From assembly GCF_054482525.1 (NCBI RefSeq), contig NZ_CM137006.1: a DNA stretch of 64,000 nucleotides, one strand, 5' to 3'. The notes under the pieces were generated by a model that did not search any database, had not been told where the DNA came from, and saw only the letters and a program-made list of their open reading frames with translations. The position numbers and the translations under genes are program-made. This document shows, one piece after another, positions 53,201-61,993 of the stretch (the first letter of the stretch is position 1; each line of letters opens with the position of its first letter).

Positions 53201-53338
53201 CGTGTAATGGCTGCATGAAATAAACAATAAAATATAAATAACATTATCAGCCTGCCGACGGCTTGAAGAGAGTCACAGTATCTTGTGCAACATTATTGGA
53301 AAGCGTGAGGGGCGAGGTAGCGAAGCGGAAAAATGTTA

Positions 53339-53443
53339 AAAAAAAGCCCATCGTGGGAGATGGGCAAAGACTACACACAGCAATTCGTTGTTTCACTCAG
53401 GGGATTTAAGTCATTGATTGATTTATGGGTATGCGGTTTTTCG
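53339..53443 (-). ncRNA. rprA: sRNA RprA (3' ~69 nt canonical, 5' end divergent)
   Basis: Minus strand 53407->53339 reads AAAUCCCCUGAGUGAAACAACGAAUUGCUGUGUGUAGUCUUUGCCCAUCUCCCACGAUGGGCUUUUUUU (rpoS-pairing region plus terminator); the 5' end coordinate is extrapolated from the expected length. Confidence 0.7.
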
Positions 53444-53472
53444 GCATAAACCAAATTAAGCAAGGCTTGAAA

Positions 53473-54054
53473 ATGGACACACAAATTGCACACATATCGC
53501 ACACAAATAAAAAGGGGTATGTATGGCGCAAGCGTTATGAAAAACGCACGATTGAAATCATCCTACGCACCCGTGATAAATCAATTGCCATAAAAAGAGC
53601 GGCATCAATAACAATTCGCTATATGGAATTAAAATCACTTGACGTTCCATTTAAAGCAATGCTGGAAATGTTAAAAAAGTTTCGTGATGGTCTGATTACG
53701 TCACATGACATTGAGCGCTTAAGGTCGATTGCGATAGCTTCACAGGAAGCTCCACACGCCGCTGTAACCGCTTCGCCTATACAAAGTGTTGGCTATGATG
53801 TCAAAACCGCTCAGAAAGCCGCACAGGGGCATTCCCTTGGCGATGCTCAAAAAGTGTACTTTGGCGCCAACACCGAATGGAAAGAAAAAACCATCAAGGC
53901 TTATTCTGGTTGTATCGACCGCTTTATTTTATGGTGCGCTAATAAAAATATTCATACCGTGGAAGAAATAACGAAAGAGCATGTGATTTCATTTAAATCC
54001 AGCATGGATGAAGAAAAATTAGCCTCCATGACTAAATTTCGCATAATAATATGA
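53473..54054 (+). pseudogene. Tyrosine-recombinase (integrase)-like N-terminal fragment; catalytic domain absent
   Basis: ORF ends after a SAM-like core-binding segment (TIKAYSGCIDRFILWCANKNIHTVEEITKEHVISFKSSMDEEKLASMT); no downstream RHRY catalytic domain; start uncertain (53425/53473). Confidence 0.4.
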
Positions 54055-54362
54055 TTCGGGTTAGCATAACCAATACTTTTATTAAAGCCTATGTATGCAC
54101 CAATTTCTTTATACTTTAACTTAGTGAAATCTGAAATAATACTCAGTGGCTGCAATACGTTATGTCCATTGTGCGCCCCTTCATTAGCGCAAAATCCTGT
54201 ATTTGCAAACTGACCTTTATCACGCCAGATGAATCTATCAACGCCGCCACATACAGGACATGGTGTATGTTCATTTGGTTTAATATCAATTCCAAAATCA
54301 TTCATATGCACCAATGGATTCTTTTTAATATAATTATTCAAATCAGTAAAGAAATTAGCCAT
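53952..54362 (-). pseudogene. Primase N-terminal zinc-ribbon fragment (P4-alpha/T7-gp4-type CPxCGG..C), truncated
   Basis: HTPCPVCGGVDRFIWRDKGQFANTGFCANEGAH zinc-ribbon signature; ORF stops after about 135 aa and overlaps the integrase fragment on the opposite strand. Confidence 0.45.
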
Positions 54363-54681
54363 TATATTTGCTCCCGTATCGCCTTGCTGGATGCTTTGCA
54401 AAGAAATCAACGATATCTTGTTTGCGATACCAGATATAACCGTCTAATTCATGATGAATTTCTTGCGGAAATTCTTTAGGGTTAAAGCGTTTGGCGGCAT
54501 AAAACATTGGTTTAGTAACACCAGATAAAGCAATTGCATCATTGCCACACACAAGCCCTGTAAGTTGCACTTTCTGCGATTGTTCTTTTATCTGTGCCGC
54601 GATTAGCCTTTTATTCTCATTAACGTATTTTTCAATCTGTAGCTTACGCATTTTTTCGCGCATGTAATTTATATCGGTCAT
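54355..54681 (-). CDS. AlpA/excisionase-like DNA-binding protein
   Basis: 108-aa ORF; C-terminal segment TKPMFYAAKRFNPKEFPQEIHHELDGYIWYRKQDIVDFF resembles AlpA-family HTH. Confidence 0.5.
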   Translation of the reverse strand: MTDINYMREKMRKLQIEKYVNENKRLIAAQIKEQSQKVQLTGLVCGNDAIALSGVTKPMFYAAKRFNPKEFPQEIHHELDGYIWYRKQDIVDFFAKHPARRYGSKYNG

Positions 54682-54697
54682 TTTAGTATCCTATATA

Positions 54698-56200
54698 TTA
54701 AGTCATTATCTGTGCTGGTGGGGTAATGATATGAATTATCCCTCGATTATTCATAATGAATCTACATCGTTCAAGCCCTGTAATTGCTCGCTTTATATTA
54801 TTTGGCTGCATTTTATACTCAGTTTTTAATGCCTTCGTTAAATCGGATTCATGTACACAGCCATCAGCACTAAATTCCATTAACTGTATTATCATTTCTA
54901 AAACTCGTTCTTGTGCTGGTGCATTTTTCTTTTTTAACTCGCTCATATATGAGTCGTAAGCGAGAGTATTATTACGCGCAGCATTTTGAGTAAAATTAAC
55001 TCCTGCTTCATATGATTCTGCATTTACAGCGTTTTGCATTAATTGCTTATTTTGCTGTTGCGTTGTTAGTGGTTGCCGCTGTTGCGTGTGCATTTGCGCA
55101 TAATCATTTATCGGTGATTGCTGCATGATAAATGGTTCATCATTAGCTTGTTTGCGTTCTATTTTTCCTGCTGCAATTACTGGAGTTGGCCTATCAATAA
55201 ATACCAACGTCTTAGTATTGGCGTTTACCTGATAACCTTTTGCATTTTCTTCGGGATAATCGCATAATTCATTATTAATATCATGTAATTCACAGACGGT
55301 AATTCCGTTATCCGCTGTGCATAAATCAAATTGCATCACTGGTAATTTTGCAGCGCTACGGTTTTTTTCGATAGTGAGTGATACGGATAACCCAAAATCA
55401 TTACCCTGCATTTGCTCTAGTTTAATGACTGTATCAGAGTCATTTTTAAGGGTAATGGCTCCTTTCATACCTTTAGCCGCATCTTTGCCGCCGTGGTGAA
55501 CCATCAAGACAAAAGAATTTGTTTCTACTGCAATTCTTTTCAAAATCGAAATCAGCTTACGCATTGCAATAGCATCATTTTCATCAGGATTTTCCATATC
55601 CAAAATGGTTTTTCCATCAATGCTTTTTTTTGTGTAGTATGCCAAAAATGAAGAAAGCGTATCAAAACAAATGATGCCGCCTTTGTTATTGGTGATTTTA
55701 TTTACATCATTTATTATTCGATTCTGTATTTCTTTATCAAATAAGTTTATTTGTGGTGACAAGATGTGCATTCTGTCATTTTTAACGCCACTATTAAACT
55801 TATTAGACCACGCTGTATTTCGATCTTTGATTTCAACGCCTGTTTCACCATCAAAATAAAAAGCATGGCATTCTTTAGCAACTCGCAAACCAGCCCACGG
55901 TTTACCCTGTGCAACTCTGTTTAAAAGAGATAATGCCGCAAATGATTTGCCTGTGTTGGATTCACCATAAAGGAAGCCGACCTGTTTTCGGTTAAATAGA
56001 TTTTCAATTACAGGGCGTAACCGCTTTTCTGATTGCAATTGAATTTCAGCTAATTCAATTGCACACAATTCATCATTTATACCATCATATTCAGACCACT
56101 CACCGTAGTTGGCGGGTGCGTAATAATCAATCGCGAGAGTGTAATAATAATCAGGAATAGCAGACCAATCAATAAACATTCCTGTGCACATATCATTCAC
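54698..56200 (-). CDS. RepA-like/RecA-fold P-loop ATPase (replicative helicase-type) with C-terminal putative winged-helix domain
   Basis: 500-aa ORF; Walker A GESNTGKS, Walker B-like IICFDTLSS, LMVHHGGK; adjacent iteron array. Confidence 0.6.
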   Translation of the reverse strand: MNDMCTGMFIDWSAIPDYYYTLAIDYYAPANYGEWSEYDGINDELCAIELAEIQLQSEKRLRPVIENLFNRKQVGFLYGESNTGKSFAALSLLNRVAQGKPWAGLRVAKECHAFYFDGETGVEIKDRNTAWSNKFNSGVKNDRMHILSPQINLFDKEIQNRIINDVNKITNNKGGIICFDTLSSFLAYYTKKSIDGKTILDMENPDENDAIAMRKLISILKRIAVETNSFVLMVHHGGKDAAKGMKGAITLKNDSDTVIKLEQMQGNDFGLSVSLTIEKNRSAAKLPVMQFDLCTADNGITVCELHDINNELCDYPEENAKGYQVNANTKTLVFIDRPTPVIAAGKIERKQANDEPFIMQQSPINDYAQMHTQQRQPLTTQQQNKQLMQNAVNAESYEAGVNFTQNAARNNTLAYDSYMSELKKKNAPAQERVLEMIIQLMEFSADGCVHESDLTKALKTEYKMQPNNIKRAITGLERCRFIMNNRGIIHIITPPAQIMT

Positions 56201-56247
56201 CGTAATTTGGGTATTTAATTAAGAAAAATTCAATTACTTCTTCTTTT

Positions 56248-56400
56248 TTATATAGATGCTTTGTTTTTTTTGTTTTTATCGCAAGTAACTAAATGCTCTT
56301 TTGGAAATTCTTTAGGGTTAAAACGTTTAGCCATATAAAAAGCGGTTGAGCCAATTTTAGCCAAAAGTTGTGCTTCACGAGGTGTAATTAAGTCGCTCAT
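56248..56400 (-). pseudogene. Second, truncated AlpA-like copy (50 codons)
   Basis: MSDLITPREAQLLAKIGSTAFYMAKRFNPKEFPKE...; DNA about 56305-56340 is an imperfect duplicate of 54473-54510; ends in a poly-T/A tract. Confidence 0.35.
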
Positions 56401-56689
56401 GTAGGGTATCTCTTAGATGTATTCTGAGTGCGGTCATGGTAGGCGAGGGGAGGAATAGCGGCAAGCATTACCGGATATAGTAAGCACTACCAGCTAAAGT
56501 CTAACTAACTGTCAACAGATTGAGGCTAAAACCACTGTATGTAAATTCAATTTTAAAAATTAAAAATCATTCTGGCTTAACTAATTATGCTCAATTTAAA
56601 TTGAATCTGATAATAAAAAGAATCAATAAAATGGATTTAGTGATTTTTAGTTGGACGAAATCGTTCATTTTATGTGCATTGCTCGCTGG

Positions 56690-56925
56690 TGATAATTCAA
56701 CCAATCCATTCAACCTATTCGAATGGGTGGTGAATTTTTGACCGAATTAAATTCACCTGAATATTCACCGAATGATTCACCTGAATCATTCAGCCCTTCA
56801 TTCACCACGAAACCCAGGCGCGGCGGGGCTTACAGGCCGATTCATTCACCTGAATATTCACCTGAATATTCACCTGAATTATTCAACCAAAAATTCACCT
56901 TCATATTCACTCATTCACCTCTCTA
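56690..56925. repeat. Iteron array: at least 9 TTCACC hexamers, including tandem palindromic 12-mers ATTCACCTGAAT
   Basis: TTCACC at 56751, 56763, 56775, 56800, 56844, 56856, 56868, 56893, 56913; three exact tandem 12-mers at 56843-56878. Confidence 0.65.
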
Positions 56926-57236
56926 TAAATAAGCATTGGAATGCTTTTTATAGAGGTTGATGAATGAAGGTCGTTCAAGTGAATGAACTGTGAGTTGGGT
57001 AAACCCCTAGGGGTTGGGGGTGTTGTCGATTTGTGGTAAATTCCTTCTGCCAGCGTGAAAAAGGCGCTGGTGGGGATTTGCAGCCCCAAACAAACAAAAC
57101 CATTGGCAAGGAATTGCCGATGCGCGTGCGCACGTCAGTTATGGCGGTCACGGCGAGGGAGTCGAAAGGCTCGCCAGTTTTGTTTGTTTGCTGGTACTGC
57201 AAACCTCGTCGTGATCGTCACCACGGGGATGCATGT

Positions 57237-57488
57237 ATGCAGGAAACAGACTGGCACAAAGCGGATATTCTTGCCTCTTTAAAGAAAAAGAAAATCAGCA
57301 TGGCGGGATTATCCCGTGAACATGGTTTATCAAGTAGCACGTTGCTAAATGCACTTAGTAGAGAATGGCCTAGAGGCGAATTAATTATTGCTAATGCAAT
57401 TGGTGTGTCACCTCAAGAAATATGGCCTTCTAGGTATTTTGAAAAAGATGGCTCTCCAAAAAATCGTGTGATTCGTAAACCTGTTTAA
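57237..57488 (+). CDS. Ner-like DNA-binding protein (Mu Ner / Nlp family)
   Basis: 83 aa MQETDWHKADILASLKKKKISMAGLSREHGLSSSTLLNALSREWPRGELIIANAIGVSPQEIWPSRY matches the Ner family signature; upstream in-frame extension of track ORF judged non-coding. Confidence 0.7.
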   Translation: MQETDWHKADILASLKKKKISMAGLSREHGLSSSTLLNALSREWPRGELIIANAIGVSPQEIWPSRYFEKDGSPKNRVIRKPV

Positions 57489-57705
57489 ATAAGTCAATGC
57501 GTCTCTGATTAAAAGGGGCGCATTTTTGTTTTTACTGACTTGTTGCAATGTGGGATATGTTGCGCACGTGTGTGCGATAGTTGTTAATTGTTTTTTGTAC
57601 TAGTTAACAAATACGAATTTTCTGAGGGTGCTATTTTGGGTTTTAGCTGCGGCTTCGCCTTGCTGCCCTTCGGGCTGGTGGTGCAAGAAGAATGTTTGAA
57701 AACTT

Positions 57706-57751
57706 CCTTTTCTTTGCTTCACCAGCCCCGTAGGGGCGTGAGCGTAGCGAA
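57706..57751 (+). repeat. 46-bp direct repeat, copy 1 (identical to 61912-61957)
   Basis: ccttttctttgcttcaccagccccgtaggggcgtgagcgtagcgaa; contains hairpin GCCCC-GTA-GGGGC. Confidence 0.85.
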
Positions 57752-57849
57752 CCTAATCACTTTGATTTTGACACATATCGGTTCTATCATTTTCAGGAAA
57801 ATCATCATAGAATTATATAAAACATACGATTTTTAAGGTGAATTTTTAA

Positions 57850-59001
57850 ATGCACGAGAAAGCGCAAACAAAAATAAAAGATACTATTAGAGAAATACTA
57901 ATCACTCCAGCAATCGCTTTTACTGGTCGTGCAGGTCATTTTGATTTTTCATTATATGAAGTTTTAGCAAATGAGCTTAACAAAAGAAAGATAAAGTTTA
58001 AAATTGATAAATTATCATGTTGGATTATTTTTGATGGCGCAAAAAAACATTACTTTCAAGATAAATCAATTACTGACGCACAAGCGATAAATGATTTTGT
58101 GGATACGTTATGTAGTATTTACTGTGAAACACCTATGGATTACTCCATCGATTTTCACTTTAGAAATTTAAAAATCGATATCAACCCGATTGATTATGAG
58201 TTTGTTTCAATTAGAGCGGGTGAGGATATTGGTATTGGTTTGTTCGCTGAAAAAGAAAAGTATGCGATTGCGAGCATTAAAAAGAATGGCTATCTTTCAG
58301 GTGGTTATCCTAGCTCATTTATAAAATCGATTTTGCAAGATTTGAAAATCTTCATTTTTTTGATTAAAAGCATTAATTTGATTAAGACAGGAAAAACCAA
58401 TTTAGCATCCACGTTATTTCAATCGATGTCCGGTCATGCTGACACAATTAAGATTGATTGCGTTAATGTTAAATATCCTTGGATGAATAGCAGTGTCCAT
58501 ATTTCAGAGTCGGTAGGGAAATTTTTACACAACTTTATCTTCAATTATGAATTTGAAGAAGGCTACATTATAGAAAAAATAGATCATTCGCTTCAGCTAA
58601 TGAATGCAATAGTAAAAGATGAGTCAAAAGAAGCCTTGCGTATCAAGGCTGCAATTGATTGGTTGGTGCAATCTGAAATCACTGATGATGAAACCATGTC
58701 TTTTATTCAAATTTGCATGGGGCTTGAATCAATTTTTGGTGATGATGATTATGAGGGTGGCCTAACAAACATACTATCTGATAGATGCGCCTACTTAATA
58801 GGGAATAAAATTAAAGAGAGGAGATTTATAAAGGACACATTTAAAAAAATATATCAAGTTAGGTCAAAGATAGTGCATGGCGTAAGAAATCATTTATCAG
58901 ATGATGAATTATATTTTAGGCATTTAGCATATTCATATTTAGAGCGTTCTATTCTAAAAGAAATTCAAAATTTAGACCTGCAATCCCATCAGGCGACGTG
59001 A
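57850..59001 (+). CDS. Hypothetical 383-aa protein with C-terminal HEPN-like R-x4-H-G motif (candidate Abi-type RNase)
   Basis: Long AT-rich ORF with SD aaggtg 11 nt upstream; RSKIVHG at residues 338-344 (nt 58861-58881) in a helical C-terminal domain. Confidence 0.65.
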   Translation: MHEKAQTKIKDTIREILITPAIAFTGRAGHFDFSLYEVLANELNKRKIKFKIDKLSCWIIFDGAKKHYFQDKSITDAQAINDFVDTLCSIYCETPMDYSIDFHFRNLKIDINPIDYEFVSIRAGEDIGIGLFAEKEKYAIASIKKNGYLSGGYPSSFIKSILQDLKIFIFLIKSINLIKTGKTNLASTLFQSMSGHADTIKIDCVNVKYPWMNSSVHISESVGKFLHNFIFNYEFEEGYIIEKIDHSLQLMNAIVKDESKEALRIKAAIDWLVQSEITDDETMSFIQICMGLESIFGDDDYEGGLTNILSDRCAYLIGNKIKERRFIKDTFKKIYQVRSKIVHGVRNHLSDDELYFRHLAYSYLERSILKEIQNLDLQSHQAT

Positions 59002-59288
59002 AGCTTGTGCGCTTCATTATGGGGCTAGCCGCCATCAGGCAAGGCGATTGCATGTCTTTGCGCTTCGTCGCCTCCTGATGCGTTCTGTGAAGATGTCGAT
59101 CATTTAGTGAGCGCGGCGGATGTTGCTGATGGATAGTGTGGATGCAACTGAACCATACCGCGAAAAGTGGCAGGATTGCGCCGGAATCGTACCGCTAGCA
59201 GGTGTTGAGTGTAAGAAGTAGTGATTGGGTGAAATGAAGATAGAAGGCCGCATAGAGGCATACAACTAGCCTTATGCGGTTGGCTGGT

Positions 59289-59732
59289 TCAGCACTGGTA
59301 AAAGTTGGCGAGGTGTGGAATATGGCTGGTGGTGGTTTCGAAAGCCTTGAGGCGTCCATTTTTATCTTTTTTCAAGTAGAGCATTTTTAGTGCTGGTGGA
59401 AATACTGAATCCATAATTCCATAAACTCCCACATTTTCGTTTTCTTCTTTAAGCATTCCCCAATATTGATAACCATTTAATGCGCTATCATCAATGCCCG
59501 TTCCAACGCGCTTAATGTGGGCAAGATATCGGCCTTTTATCGTAAAGCTAAATGATTCATCACGTTCATTTGTGCAAGTGTAAAATCCATCATCGCTTTC
59601 ATTTATAACTTCAGATGCTTCACGATTTAATGAGTACTTGTCTAAGTTGTTTATGATGTCACTTCGCTGTGCGCATCCAGTCAAATTTAGAATGGTAAAA
59701 ATTAGTACAGAAGATGCAAGATATTTGTTCAT
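59289..59732 (-). CDS. Hypothetical lipoprotein (147 aa)
   Basis: MNKYLASSVLIFTILNLTGC signal peptide plus lipobox; start at internal ATG 59732. Confidence 0.6.
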   Translation of the reverse strand: MNKYLASSVLIFTILNLTGCAQRSDIINNLDKYSLNREASEVINESDDGFYTCTNERDESFSFTIKGRYLAHIKRVGTGIDDSALNGYQYWGMLKEENENVGVYGIMDSVFPPALKMLYLKKDKNGRLKAFETTTSHIPHLANFYQC

Positions 59733-59818
59733 TTTGATTATCCATATGAAAAGCAAGGTACTTAGATTAAATTACCCTGCTTAAGCAGTAATTAGCGGTT
59801 CCGTTAATAGAGGGTAGA

Positions 59819-60178
59819 TTATTTGTTAATTTGTTTTTTAGTGTGTGAGATAAAATTTCTAAGTAAATCTTTTTCAATTACAATTTCACATTTTAGGTTT
59901 TGGCTATCGACCGCATCAATTCTATCAAACCAAAACATTAATTCCTGGCTTGCATCGCATTTACGTTTGAATTTAATTGCCCTGCCGAATTTTTCACTTA
60001 AAGAATCATCATCACATAAAAAATAAATTTTATTATTAATGGTGATTTGAATTAAATATGTCTTCCTCGTTAGGTAATCTAACCTTTCGTTAGCTTTCAG
60101 TAAGTTAGCTTCAGCTTGTTTGATGCGTATAAGAGCATCCTCTTTGCTTAAAGGGGATGTATTGACAGACTTGATCAT
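59819..60178 (-). CDS. Hypothetical protein (119 aa), upstream partner of the lipoprotein gene
   Basis: ORF co-oriented with and 62 bp upstream of the lipoprotein gene; no recognisable family. Confidence 0.5.
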   Translation of the reverse strand: MIKSVNTSPLSKEDALIRIKQAEANLLKANERLDYLTRKTYLIQITINNKIYFLCDDDSLSEKFGRAIKFKRKCDASQELMFWFDRIDAVDSQNLKCEIVIEKDLLRNFISHTKKQINK

Positions 60179-60287
60179 AATTTAATCCTTTGGTTAAGAT
60201 TCATCAAAAATATGCCATAAATAGCCTTGAAGGTTGTGTGGAATACATATTATGATAGCTTCATCTAATCAGCAAGGGGAATAATAG

Positions 60288-60443
60288 ATGCCTTCTAAAC
60301 GTGTTATATGCTCACTTGATGAGCAAGAGTTAGATATTCTCGAAAAATATAAATTACATTATAAAAATATGCATGGCGTAAAATTAAACAGAACGGCAAT
60401 TATCAAAATGTTGATTAGTCGTCTATCAAAAGAAATTCAATAA
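60288..60443 (+). CDS. Small putative ribbon-helix-helix (CopG/Arc-like) regulator, 51 aa
   Basis: MPSKRVICSLDEQELDILEKYKLHYKNMHGVKLNRTAIIKMLISRLSKEIQ: beta-strand then two helices pattern; divergent from the minus-strand pair; below ORF-track cutoff, found by own reading. Confidence 0.45.
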   Translation: MPSKRVICSLDEQELDILEKYKLHYKNMHGVKLNRTAIIKMLISRLSKEIQ

Positions 60444-60495
60444 TAATTCTAATTACCAATTAATTTAAACTTCACATAATTAAAGAGGCAACTCT

Positions 60496-60810
60496 ATGCA
60501 CACTCTTTTTTCTAAATTTAAAAACAGGAAAATTAAAATGTATCAACCACGTTATAAAAGCAGAATGATTGACGATAATGAATATAATCAGGTGCTTCAA
60601 TCGAGAATGCAAAATCTTTTAAATCAATATAATAATGAGGTTTCAAACTTAACCCGCATTGGTGTTACAAATTTGGGTTTCGGCCGATGGGATAATGGAG
60701 AGAGCAAAATCAATAACCACGTTAATAAAGTAAGTGAGACTTTGGAAAAGATGCAATCTACGCAAGCCTTGATTGATGCTCTTGCAAATGAAATTACACA
60801 AACTAATTAA
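60496..60810 (+). CDS. Hypothetical small protein A (104 aa)
   Basis: ORF with SD aaagagg 8 nt upstream; AT-rich. Confidence 0.5.
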   Translation: MHTLFSKFKNRKIKMYQPRYKSRMIDDNEYNQVLQSRMQNLLNQYNNEVSNLTRIGVTNLGFGRWDNGESKINNHVNKVSETLEKMQSTQALIDALANEITQTN

Positions 60811-60894
60811 TCGAATGGGGGATGCTTTAAATGGTAATCGCAATCATGGTTGTAATGTTTTGGGCTTTCCTGATTCTTAAAGAGGAAATGAAAT

Positions 60895-61179
60895 ATGGTT
60901 AAATTTGGAGTGTTTTACCATCATGCATGGGGTGATGGTAAAAAGGAAATCCCGCCACCTGATTTAAATTACATCCGAACCGATCCACATAAAAATAATG
61001 AAATTGCTTTAGATGTTTTTGATTCAAGAATGGACGCACAAAAACGCGCTGATTTACTAAATTCACGCATGGCAAAAAATCAAACTGGTCAGCATTATGT
61101 TGCGCCAACAACGCAAGAAACCAAAACGGCTCAAAAGCGCTTTAAGTTTCCTTGTACTAGCATTTATGGGTGGAAATGA
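60895..61179 (+). CDS. Hypothetical small protein B (94 aa)
   Basis: ORF with SD aagagga; N-terminus KFGVFYHHAWGDGKKEIPPPD resembles that of protein C. Confidence 0.5.
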   Translation: MVKFGVFYHHAWGDGKKEIPPPDLNYIRTDPHKNNEIALDVFDSRMDAQKRADLLNSRMAKNQTGQHYVAPTTQETKTAQKRFKFPCTSIYGWK

Positions 61180-61181
61180 AA

Positions 61182-61556
61182 ATGAGTAAACAATTCGGTG
61201 TTTTCTTTTGGCGAAAAGGTGACGCTATTACCGATATCCCGTCAGATAAAAATGTTGCAAATCGCGGAGTAAAGCCTAAGCGCATTTTTTCAGATTATAT
61301 TGATGGAATGCGATATAAAGATAAAATGAATGCAACAATTCCAGCGGCGCAAAAAGGTAAATATGAATATGTATTAGCGGAAATTGTTGAACCAGACCCG
61401 AACAATACAAAGGTGTTGTTTAAATCTGGAAATTTAACAGAAGCATTAAGGGCGAAGCGACAAACAACCGAACAAATCAACCGAAATAAAATTGATGCAA
61501 TGATTAAAGAAGCCGCACACGATTACCTTTACACTATTACAGGAATGGAAAAATGA
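61182..61556 (+). CDS. Hypothetical small protein C (about 125 aa; start at ATG 61182 or 61176)
   Basis: QFGVFFWRKGDAITDIPSDKN N-terminus paralogous to B; abuts stop of B. Confidence 0.5.
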   Translation: MSKQFGVFFWRKGDAITDIPSDKNVANRGVKPKRIFSDYIDGMRYKDKMNATIPAAQKGKYEYVLAEIVEPDPNNTKVLFKSGNLTEALRAKRQTTEQINRNKIDAMIKEAAHDYLYTITGMEK

Positions 61557-61852
61557 TTATTGACGAGCGATTTATTAAATGGTCAATGGTGCTGGTGGAG
61601 GCCGGAAAGCCATCACCCAGCCTCGCGGGGCTTTATAAAGGAAACACTAAAGGATTAATCTTTTATAAAACACGTGAATTGGCATCAAATGCAGCCACTA
61701 AACGGAATGAGCAATTAGCAGGAACTAAATCAACCAGCCGATTTAAAATCATTAAATTGCATGACGCAGAAGCACAACAGAAACATGATTTTCAGTTAAA
61801 ACAGGAACGCCAGCGCCGCGATGCACGCCATATGCGCCGATTTGGTTTCTAA
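61553..61852 (+). CDS. Hypothetical small protein D (99 aa), basic C-terminus
   Basis: Start ATG overlaps stop of C (ATGA), indicating translational coupling. Confidence 0.5.
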   Translation: MIIDERFIKWSMVLVEAGKPSPSLAGLYKGNTKGLIFYKTRELASNAATKRNEQLAGTKSTSRFKIIKLHDAEAQQKHDFQLKQERQRRDARHMRRFGF

Positions 61853-61911
61853 ATATAACTCAATAACTCAACCAATGGTGATGTTAAAGAATAAGGTGGC
61901 CTTAAATTTCA

Positions 61912-61957
61912 CCTTTTCTTTGCTTCACCAGCCCCGTAGGGGCGTGAGCGTAGCGAA
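61912..61957 (+). repeat. 46-bp direct repeat, copy 2 (identical to 57706-57751)
   Basis: Same 46-mer, 37 bp upstream of the tape-measure-like ORF. Confidence 0.85.
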
Positions 61958-61993
61958 ATAAGTAACATTAATATCAAATCAGAGGTAAATAAA

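Follow-up and report, generated by a model that had tools for sequence, protein, structure and literature searches.

Two identical 46-base repeats in a satellite-like island are the conserved 3′ halves of strand-specific hairpins

What are two identical 46-base repeats doing ahead of two different genes? In the window analysed here (the whole stretch of DNA, 64 kb), the 46-mer CCTTTTCTTTGCTTCACCAGCCCCGTAGGGGCGTGAGCGTAGCGAA occurs exactly twice, on the + strand at positions 57706-57751 and 61912-61957, 4206 nt from start to start. No further copy was found in the window at up to three mismatches, and the chance expectation is zero (no match across 100 dinucleotide-preserving shuffles). The earlier note had reported identical copies in the same orientation, each shortly upstream of a rightward gene, with a GCCCC-GTA-GGGGC hairpin and a sharp 3′ boundary, and all of this holds. 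Copy 1 ends 98 nt before the ATG (57850) of a HEPN-like gene and copy 2 ends 36 nt before the ATG (61994) of a tape-measure-like gene; the small hairpin, here P2, lies at 57725-57737 and 61931-61943 on the + strand; and the 30 nt 3′ of each copy show no significant likeness (72 of 500 shuffles equal the score). The weaker upstream similarity needs rewording: direct similarity is marginal (17 of 500 shuffles score as well), and what unites the two upstream stretches is their purine-rich sequence, in each case an inverted counterpart to the pyrimidine tract of the repeat. The two repeats are real, and they are the conserved 3′ halves (module M) of two strand-specific hairpins, H1 and H2.

Both copies sit in a rare, phage-satellite-like island of about 11.6 kb, the insertion site of which is the sRNA gene rprA. 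The island integrase is of the P4 type, and the content comprises an integrase remnant, a helicase-primase, a C4/CI-type antisense RNA, a Ner-like regulator, the HEPN gene (57850..59001, + strand, annotated as a HEPN domain protein) and the tape-measure-like gene (61994..63982, + strand, PHROG tail tape measure families and TIGR01541). For comparison we used about 20 related islands from E. coli, Salmonella, Enterobacter, Citrobacter, Phytobacter and metagenomes. All islands with the tape-measure gene keep both M copies at the same two places, and the positions are held in islands of five genera, including the most diverged island. Across 10 islands, the M core is 88-90% identical, the sequence flanking copy 2 is 59-80% identical, and that following copy 1 is 43-53% identical. 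M occurs in 5 of 5426 E. coli genomes, solely within this island family and at two or three places in each, whereas none was found outside these islands in the 5426 genomes, in 50,697 phage records or in IMG/VR. A dispersed repeat of the REP, REPIN or ERIC kind was rejected on these grounds; the earlier note had named membership of a known IS/REP family as a refutation of its view. The hairpin element whose 3′ half is module M belongs exclusively to a small family of satellite-like islands integrated at rprA.

The element has three parts: a long irregular stem-loop, whose 3′ strand M supplies with its pyrimidine tract and ACCAG; an abutting G+C hairpin of 4-5 bp with a GNA or GNRA loop (P2); and the tail GUGA-GCGNAGC-GAAC. 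In H1 (57636..57756, + strand), copy 1, or M1, is the 3′ arm (covariance model R1 matches 57703-57752 with 74.6 bits). The 5′ arm is M1′, an inverted, degenerate module copy on the − strand at 57652..57697 (20.6 bits, E=2e-4), which lies only 10 nt from M1 and carries its own small hairpin, GCCC-GAA-GGGC on the − strand. All related islands have a corresponding inverted copy. M1′ and M1 fold into a near-continuous rod of about 120 nt with an MFE of −56.4 kcal/mol (z=−4.06; none of 200 shuffles folds equally well), within which the nearly invariant M1 tail, GTGA-GCGTAGC-GAAC (57738..57752, +), is paired with the 5′ arm. Copy 2, or M2 (R1 match 61909-61958, 70.4 bits), sits between the tape-measure-like ATG and the stop codon (61852) of orf99, a product with an Arg-rich C-terminus for which a fold search gave no informative match. 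To stem-loop SL-I of H2 (61876..61930, +), seen in the predicted folds, M2 contributes its pyrimidine tract and CACCA, which pair with a degenerate inverted arm; P2 of M2 appears in all single-sequence folds and in the consensus fold. The M2 tail (61944..61958, +) is predicted to be unpaired, and after it come an A+U-rich leader of 36 nt and the ribosome-binding site of the tape-measure-like gene; every lineage keeps M2 35-36 nt from the ATG. The predicted irregular duplexes measure about 45 bp in H1 and about 16-21 bp in H2.

Selection acts on the folding of the + strand. H1 of the relatives folds at −55 to −61 kcal/mol, usually with a gain of 5-10 kcal/mol on the + strand, which in type-A hairpins is the more stable of the two strands. 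Covariation, which the earlier note had proposed to examine, is present: double changes occur at 5 of 28 H1 pairs, a formally modest signal among closely related sequences. The closing stem UGGUG/CACCA has become UGGUA/UACCA in Salmonella islands, and the underlying change (GGUG/CACC to GGUA/UACC) is present in M1′, M1, M2′ and M2. Across 14 distinct H1 sequences, G·U outnumbers A·C by 77:9, and this bias, together with the compensatory changes, indicates folding of the + strand. The P2 loop of the relatives reads GTA, GAA, GCA or GTAA, always GNA or GNRA, and the stem is shortened on both sides together (GCCC-GAA-GGGC) in FREC5 M1 and L041 M2. Two unrelated H1 5′ arm sequences (types A and B) each pair with the invariant tail, in which variation is limited to the N of GCGNAGC (T, G or A). 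In H2 the arm opposite M2 has degenerated, yet its pairing and M2 itself are kept. We infer that it is as RNA, and not as single-stranded DNA, that the strand folds; the + strand may also have a role at the DNA level, since GNA-capped mini-hairpins and G·T wobbles are also favourable in single-stranded DNA.

These changes bear on the idea that M is a double-stranded DNA site shared by two units, either the upstream half of a promoter that needs an activator, or an operator to which an island or helper protein binds. Its invariant core and sharp 3′ edge, the constant distance from M2 to the ATG, the association of the tail with a co-directional gene and an A+T-rich −10-like hexamer, noted by eye some 9-16 nt beyond M where the downstream sequences are unrelated, would all suit such a site. 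However, strand-biased G·U and compensatory changes are unexpected for a duplex site, the spacing of the P2 palindrome varies (11, 13 or 14 bp), and there is no acceptable −35. The best sigma-70-like promoter after M1 (57762-57790), which probably belongs to the HEPN gene and follows H1, would place M1 at about −46 to −91, while the sigma-70-like site after M2 overlaps the tape-measure-like ATG. We consider a duplex site improbable.

The placement of the hairpins is equally regular. All elements share the orientation of the rightward genes and occupy gaps that separate rightward transcription units. In intact relatives one comes after int; H1/M1 stands after the C4-RNA/Ner module and before a swappable cargo gene; and H2/M2 separates a small-ORF operon from the tape-measure-like gene. 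Only elements ahead of a co-directional gene, namely five cargo types and the tape-measure gene, have the tail; the element after int lacks it, and so do the two islands in which the tape-measure gene has given way to a convergent gene. Most likely, the module M hairpins are transcript signals ahead of rightward genes rather than boundaries of an inserted cassette. Our best explanation, a tentative one, is that they are cis-acting RNA punctuation or leader elements in rightward transcripts, whose promoters, RNA ends and any processing are putative. The long stem would serve as a processing or 3′-end-protecting structure, of the RNase III or stable 3′ hairpin type, and would uncouple the downstream message from upstream sequence, while P2 and the tail would provide a common 5′ leader for the two downstream genes. 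The irregular duplex that an RNase III site requires is predicted in both H1 and H2. No intrinsic terminator was called at H1 or H2 in the window, nor in S10; P2 is followed by GUGAGCG without a U run, and only in Salmonella H2 is the inner stem followed by a pyrimidine tract. RNase III cleavage and 3′-end protection are sequence-independent and so do not by themselves explain the near-invariant tail, which may reflect gene conversion combined with multiple pairing constraints, or a specific reader.

The earlier note had the repeats bracket an accessory cassette, and in this it was mistaken: seven of the eight genes in the interval belong to the conserved core, and only the first, the HEPN gene, varies. 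This slot directly after M1 holds genes of 133 aa, 155 aa or 151+226 aa in Phytobacter, L031 and L039, and homology to the Phytobacter island ends at 57757, the swap boundary falling 6 nt after M1. The proposed comparison of islands with and without the 57.7-61.9 kb segment found no island lacking it; loss of M2 accompanies loss of the tape-measure gene, which is outside the interval. Site-specific sites that bound a cassette were therefore rejected, and the note's alternative of recombination sites is unsupported for cassette ends, given an interval that is mostly core and positions fixed in five genera. It survives in another sense, for homologous recombination and gene conversion demonstrably have junctions at the hairpins. 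Lineage-specific variants are common to both M copies, with M1′, M1 and M2 co-varying by lineage, and the L031 copies carry the same two insertions, outside GCGTAGC of the tail, which points to gene conversion; the copies are homogenised by it. The deletion forms that join int, hairpin and cargo, as well as replacements of the tape-measure gene, have their junctions inside the hairpins. A Chi sequence, GCTGGTGG, lies in the H1 5′ arm (57674..57681, +) and pairs with CACCAGC of the repeat; the island has six Chi sites on the same strand, a 70-fold enrichment. That recombination is what the element is for, be it through site-specific cassette-bounding sites or through homologous anchors and Chi-associated hot spots for module exchange, nevertheless seems doubtful to us. 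No empty-site or interval-deleted form was seen among the related islands, the interval travels without a recombinase, the far end of the cargo has no hairpin, attC-type core sites are unmatched by eye, and long conserved flanks would serve homologous exchange far better. Exchange accounts for a side effect, not for the selection on folding.

Concerted evolution also fits a functionless REPIN- or MITE-like palindrome that settled at three intergenic sites in an ancestral island, its copies kept alike by gene conversion only, and each element is indeed an inverted pair of one unit of about 50 nt, as in REPINs. Against this stand the absence of copies outside the islands in the collections searched, the fixation of the same sites in five genera, and the decay of the M2 partner arm while pairing and M2 were preserved. 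We give this possibility little weight. The elements resemble REP/BIME, REPIN and ERIC sequences in being imperfect palindromes of about 100-130 nt made of two inverted units, each with a small G+C hairpin, and in their intergenic location, transcribed with the flanking genes (for M, presumably so). They differ in the two or three copies confined to one island family, and a RAYT-type GTAG is not conserved. Integron attC is likewise a strand-specific imperfect hairpin beside a swappable gene, with a sharp cassette boundary at the hairpin 3′ end. In contrast to attC, RYYYAAC/GTTRRRY cores are absent by eye, the far cargo end is bare, the integrase is P4-type rather than IntI, and most of the supposed cassette is core.

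A different reading of the transcript signal is that it controls elongation, working like lambda nut, HK022 put or RfaH ops/JUMPStart. P2 and the tail, as nascent RNA or as a mini-hairpin of the non-template DNA strand, would recruit a host, island or helper factor to RNA polymerase, and transcription would then continue into the cargo and tape-measure genes. This is unlikely, if the strongest of the alternatives. As with nutL/nutR and putL/putR, two near-identical same-strand copies head different rightward units; a small hairpin has a GNRA-like loop (on a stem of 4-5 bp, where boxB has a 5-bp stem and a GNRA-like pentaloop to which an arginine-rich N protein encoded nearby binds); SL-I and P2 repeat the two abutting stem-loops of HK022 put, although we know of no sequence likeness between M and put; and the nearly invariant linear tail, found only where a co-directional gene follows, suggests sequence-specific recognition. 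Like ops/JUMPStart, M is a conserved element of about 40-50 nt in the leaders of several operons. Its GCGTAGC is one base different from the ops core, GCGGTAGC, and could form the same kind of non-template-strand mini-hairpin. However, boxA (CGCUCUUUA / UGCUCUUUAACAA) has no match at up to three mismatches at or beside either copy, and the 12-nt ops consensus GGCGGTAGnnTG has none at up to two at either copy, the equivalent of its critical T varying (T, G or A). Unlike in nut, the conserved linear part is 3′ of the hairpin instead of 5′, and the pyrimidine tract 5′ of P2 differs between lineages and is base-paired in the long stem. No N-, Q- or NusG-like protein was detected, nor was a NusG paralogue seen in the island. 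A nut site lies between a promoter and the terminators that it overrides, but beyond neither copy did the scanned stretch give a predicted terminator-like site on the + strand, and the tail is masked by pairing in H1. From the earlier note's likening of the repeats to boxA-boxB, a strand-specific RNA signal with a GNA-capped hairpin before rightward genes remains the leading class of explanation, while the specific likeness does not.

H1 could also form a small RNA of its own instead of a leader, given the canonical terminator (57496-57524) before it and the probable HEPN promoter after it. As a riboregulator pair, M1′ would be antisense to M2 in the tape-measure leader, M1 would act as a cis 'cover', and the lineage-specific pyrimidine tracts would determine specificity, following the logic of P4 seqA/seqB/seqC with CI RNA or P1/P7 a1b1/C4/a2b2, where an antisense segment has two direct-repeat target copies. 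Directly upstream of H1, an alignment of 12 islands shows a conserved non-coding block (57540..57635, +) that contains the inverted repeat TTGTTAA...TTAACAA; most islands also have a promoter-like TTAACA-N18-TATCTA there, assigned by eye and not confirmed by a promoter scan. The M1′ × M2 duplex is worth −51 kcal/mol, equal to M1′ × M1; co-variation by lineage is as in those systems; in L035/L036, M1′ matches M2 at 21/21 positions and M1 less well; and the same logic is already at work in the island's true C4 RNA (57137-57225, 65.8 bits, RF01695), 480 nt upstream. Nevertheless, we find such a pair hard to credit. M1 is so near M1′ that the intramolecular rod should form first, locking the antisense arm with its adjacent target, and the L035 pattern is accounted for by exchange with the int-proximal hairpin type. 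Islands L024, L033, L039 and L040 keep H1 intact without M2, the distal target, or the tape-measure gene, so the role of H1 is independent of M2. H1 and H2 also miss the C4 model even at E≤5, and the other Rfam families gave only sub-threshold chance matches, lying over 57653-57747 (mir-667, 22 bits; snoZ163, 20 bits).

For the favoured reading as RNA punctuation or leader elements, the comparison is with T7 RNase III sites and lambda sib. The T7 sites are without an invariant 3′ extension such as that of module M, and, unlike sib, the int-proximal hairpin is not across att from int. The likeness is in repeated, irregular intercistronic or 3′-UTR hairpins of at least two helical turns and, as for sib after int, in one copy right after int in the intact relatives.

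The two copies of the 46-bp repeat lie exactly at 57706-57751 (copy 1) and 61912-61957 (copy 2), both on the + strand, with no further match at ≤3 mismatches; the 46-mer occurred in none of 100 shuffles. As the earlier note had described, the repeat contains the small hairpin GCCCC-GTA-GGGGC, has a sharp 3' boundary (no significant likeness in the 30 nt beyond it) and stands shortly before a rightward gene, with 98 nt between the end of copy 1 and the ATG of the HEPN-like gene and 36 nt between the end of copy 2 and the ATG of the tape-measure-like gene. The similarity it had reported upstream holds only marginally for the 45 nt before the copies when these are compared as direct sequence. The host DNA is an E. 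coli chromosome, in which an island of ~11.6 kb (53336-64000 and beyond; 15837-27585 in L001) is inserted in the sRNA gene rprA, duplicated at both ends. From left to right, the island carries a truncated integrase, a primase remnant and a helicase-primase, an array of ~12-nt iterons (ATTCACCTGAAT, 56750-56911) that separates the leftward replication genes from the C4 promoter region, a C4/CI-type antisense RNA (57137-57225, + strand; RF01695, 65.8 bits), a Ner-like regulator (57237-57488) with a canonical terminator, copy 1, the HEPN gene, two leftward genes, five small rightward genes, copy 2 and the tape-measure-like gene. A deletion (53425-54410) truncates the integrase and the primase in this island. 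The tape-measure-like gene has no close phage relative, the best showing 33% identity over 90 aa.

The island is rare, being present in five of 5426 complete E. coli genomes. It was found neither among 50,697 phage records nor in IMG/VR (0 matches in a pattern scan), and megablast and blastn searches with the region and with the copy-1 hairpin returned nothing from phages and only the five islands from E. coli genomes. A scan of GTDB genomes with an 18-mer (GGGCGTGAGCGTAGCGAA) recovered Phytobacter as the sole relative; the other 18 matches correspond to about the chance expectation, plus three unrelated repeat families in Planctomycetota-type MAGs. The 18-mer also lies within repeated hairpin elements of distant MAGs (L007-L010 and L014 from Phycisphaerae/Armatimonadetes; L004 and L015; L012 and L013), GTTTAGCCGGGGCGTGAGCGTAGCGAACCCCCGGCTAAAC has four copies in one Phycisphaerae bin, and in Kiritimatiellae the 18-mer stands after a GTA-looped hairpin. 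These hairpin contexts are curious, though the total of matches is near that expected by chance. A full-text literature search yielded no account of the repeat or of the island family. With its integrase, split helicase-primase, C4 RNA, Ner, swappable cargo and tape-measure-like gene, the island looks like a member of an apparently undescribed satellite family.

Protein look-ups with orf99, a small protein of the island, and two collection scans gathered ~20 islands from E. coli, Salmonella, Enterobacter hormaechei, Citrobacter, Phytobacter and metagenomes. The chromosomal site is identical in all relatives whose contigs reach the flanks, and wherever the tape-measure gene is present, both copies occupy the same two positions. 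Only the first of the eight genes between the copies varies, this slot being filled by a HEPN gene of several types or by a 133-aa, 155-aa or 151+226-aa gene, and the other seven form a conserved core. Therefore, the repeats do not bracket an accessory cassette, as had been proposed. Copy 2 travels with the gene on its right, not with the interval on its left; in two islands, a convergent 454-aa gene replaces the tape-measure gene and the part of copy 2 comprising the small hairpin and the 3' tail is gone. Short-read assemblies of related islands in Logan (L027, L030, L032) are broken exactly inside both copies. These breaks independently confirm that assembly graphs can collapse over a repeat of this length, and draft genomes will often contain islands of the rprA satellite-like family in pieces.

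A covariance model of the ~50-nt module that contains the 46-mer finds two strong + strand copies per island (M1 and M2) and a weaker inverted copy, M1', directly left of copy 1 (57652-57697, minus strand, 20.6 bits). It follows that copy 1 makes up the 3' arm of a rod of ~120 nt, H1 (57636-57756), with a fold of -56.4 kcal/mol (z=-4.06); in relatives, H1 reaches -55 to -61 kcal/mol. SL-I (61876-61930), the irregular stem-loop to which copy 2 contributes the 3' arm, is shorter than H1; its other arm has decayed in sequence and retained its pairing. In both elements SL-I is abutted without spacer by the small hairpin P2 (4-5-bp G+C stem; loop GUA, GAA, GCA or GUAA), followed by the tail GUGA-GCGNAGC-GAAC, which occurs only where a co-directional gene comes next. 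A third hairpin of this family lies right after the integrase stop codon in the intact related islands FREC5 and S10 (L002 3018-3113; L003 2900-2988). It keeps a GNRA-capped G+C hairpin (AGCCCC-GNRA-GGGGCU) without the tail, its position is reminiscent of lambda sib, and the region is deleted in the window's island.

Sequence changes in the hairpins preserve the pairing. Five pairs of the H1 consensus have changes on both sides with pairing kept, and in the Salmonella islands all four arms have GGUA/UACC in place of the closing stem GGUG/CACC. One C and one G of P2 were lost together in M1 of FREC5 and in M2 of L041, another related island, and the 5' arm comes in two unrelated types, A (GCUGCGGCUUCGCCUUGCUGCGC) and B (GUUCACUUCGUUCACGC), either of which pairs with the invariant tail. 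Summed over 14 distinct H1 sequences, G·U pairs number 77 and A·C one-by-one mismatches 9, and type-A hairpins fold 5-10 kcal/mol better on the + strand than on the - strand. Together, the G·U excess, the better + strand folding and the pairing-preserving changes point to the + strand, that is, the rightward transcript, as the putative folded strand; + strand single-stranded DNA is possible in principle. A promoter or operator recognized as duplex DNA is improbable, because the strand bias and the variable spacing of P2 argue against it. We give a similarly small chance to the view that the hairpins are a palindromic repeat without function.

The pyrimidine tract of the repeat differs among lineages and is identical in both copies of one island: UUGCUUCACCAG in the window, FREC5 and L041, UUCACCCACCAG in S10, Phytobacter, L028 and others, UUGCCCUACCAG in Salmonella and UUUACCCACCAG in L037. 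Within an island, M1 and M2 share 43-50 matching positions in the 50-52-column module alignment. In L031, the same two single-G insertions are found in the tail of both copies, indicating that gene conversion is at work. Across 10 islands, conservation at both sites peaks in the module core, whose identity is 88-90%; the surroundings of copy 2 reach 59-80%, and the stretch downstream of copy 1 reaches 43-53%.

Several rearrangements have their junctions at the hairpins. Homology to Phytobacter stops 6 nt past copy 1; three metagenomic or ENA contigs carry an integrase-hairpin-cargo form from which the replication and immunity modules are missing; and H1 has an int-type 5' arm in FREC5 and an int-type centre in L035. 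The island also holds six Chi sites (GCTGGTGG at 54714, 57066, 57674, 59325, 59392 and 61591) in 10.5 kb of 38% G+C DNA, versus 0.08 expected (P about 4e-10), all on the + strand and none on the other. One of them (57674-57681) lies in the 5' arm of H1. FREC5 has Chi at the same positions, and S10 at some of them. Same-strand Chi sites may shield the island's DNA from RecBCD while it is replicating or linear, or may channel recombination. The suggestion that the repeats are recombination sites marking a cassette was rejected, the interval being mostly conserved core with no empty site or interval deletion among the related islands. A role as recombination anchor has, in our view, a low probability: since folding and strand bias are under selection and neither an empty site nor an interval deletion was seen, we read the junctions as consequences of dispersed repeats plus Chi, not as the reason for the elements' existence.

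Several known classes of element were set aside. Over the whole island, Rfam (E≤5) gave real matches only for C4 and RprA and none for the hairpins. Scans of E. coli genomes and GTDB led us to reject a dispersed REP/ERIC-type repeat, and a canonical terminator is recognizable only in the inner stem of the Salmonella copy-2 hairpin. The repeat shows no complementarity to the island's C4 RNA and is not a target of it. The module has no acceptable -35 for a sigma-70 promoter, the -10-like hexamers after it are indistinguishable from A+T richness, and resemblances to MotA-box, sigma-E and SP6-like sequences, seen by eye, are not conserved across lineages. An ORF (57588-57836) passes through copy 1; a coding reading was rejected because its frame is disrupted by the indels of P2 and the tail. 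Cos/pac sites, arm-type integrase sites and P4-type iterons do not fit in position or conservation.

Of the classes considered, a cis-acting structured signal in rightward transcripts has the best support; it would serve the gene on its right. As its role we tentatively favour a punctuation or leader function, in which the long stem would process and protect transcript ends and P2 plus tail would form a common leader. An elongation-control signal of the nut, put or ops kind is unlikely; the comparison with boxA-boxB sites made in the earlier note was right in spirit and fails as to membership. Scans for boxA and ops were negative. Less likely still is an antisense-target pair with M1' acting against M2, since H1 persists in islands without M2 and M1 sits only 10 nt from M1'.

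Other parts of the island have counterparts in known elements. The RNA at 57137-57225 is a genuine C4/CI-type antisense RNA, with a loop region complementary to 57072-57108 upstream and to 57226-57256 downstream, across the Ner start codon; the duplexes, of -35 and -31 kcal/mol, were equalled by none of 300 shuffles. This is the layout of P1 a1b1/C4/a2b2 or P4 seqA/B/C, here predicted to control a Ner-type regulator. The iteron array (56750-56911) is probably the island origin and recalls the P4 origin iterons (TGTTCACC). Directly after the variable cargo lies a G+C-rich non-coding block (59032-59198) that is 95% identical to Phytobacter, versus ~78% for the adjoining genes; it has no significant fold or Rfam match and is present only in islands of the rprA family. 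The small ORFs had no matches in PHROGs, NCBIfam or PADLOC, and the orf99 model (pLDDT 80) no fold match in the PDB. No protein of the family is better conserved than orf119 (59819-60178, minus strand; 119 aa), with a mean column identity of 92%. Its motif YLIQITINNKIYF is weakly similar to the GIY-YIG domain of I-TevI (E=0.22), a likeness that a profile search did not confirm, and its AlphaFold model (pLDDT 55) was not good enough to be of use. The small rightward operon opens with a gene (60288-60443, + strand) that by eye resembles a ribbon-helix-helix regulator. Orf94, orf124 and orf99 may be distant paralogues (13-22% identity).

The element is a new, family-specific case of a repeated regulatory hairpin in a phage-like element, and a compact, clean example of a conserved strand-specific structured repeat without an Rfam family. 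It is also a small-scale showcase of gene conversion, compensatory evolution and Chi enrichment, and a reminder that exact direct repeats several kilobases apart in a mobile element are not necessarily insertion marks. It is placed where the island's regulatory core meets, on the one hand, a swappable gene of defence type and, on the other, an unusual tape-measure-like gene; should it control them, it offers a handle on cargo expression or silencing independent of the island's immunity circuit. A bolder and rather improbable proposal is that the hairpin set is the satellite's second, previously unseen RNA specificity system beside the C4 RNA or, alternatively, that an elongation factor reads the invariant GNA mini-hairpins on the non-template strand. 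If such a specificity system exists, expression of the swappable defence cargo and of the tape-measure-like gene would be coupled to one riboregulator. The H1 transcript would then carry the antisense arm M1', the modules would be its addressed targets, and the four tract variants, each common to M1', M1 and M2 of an island, would define compatibility groups, the counterpart of the C4 a'/b' sequences in P1/P7 heteroimmunity.
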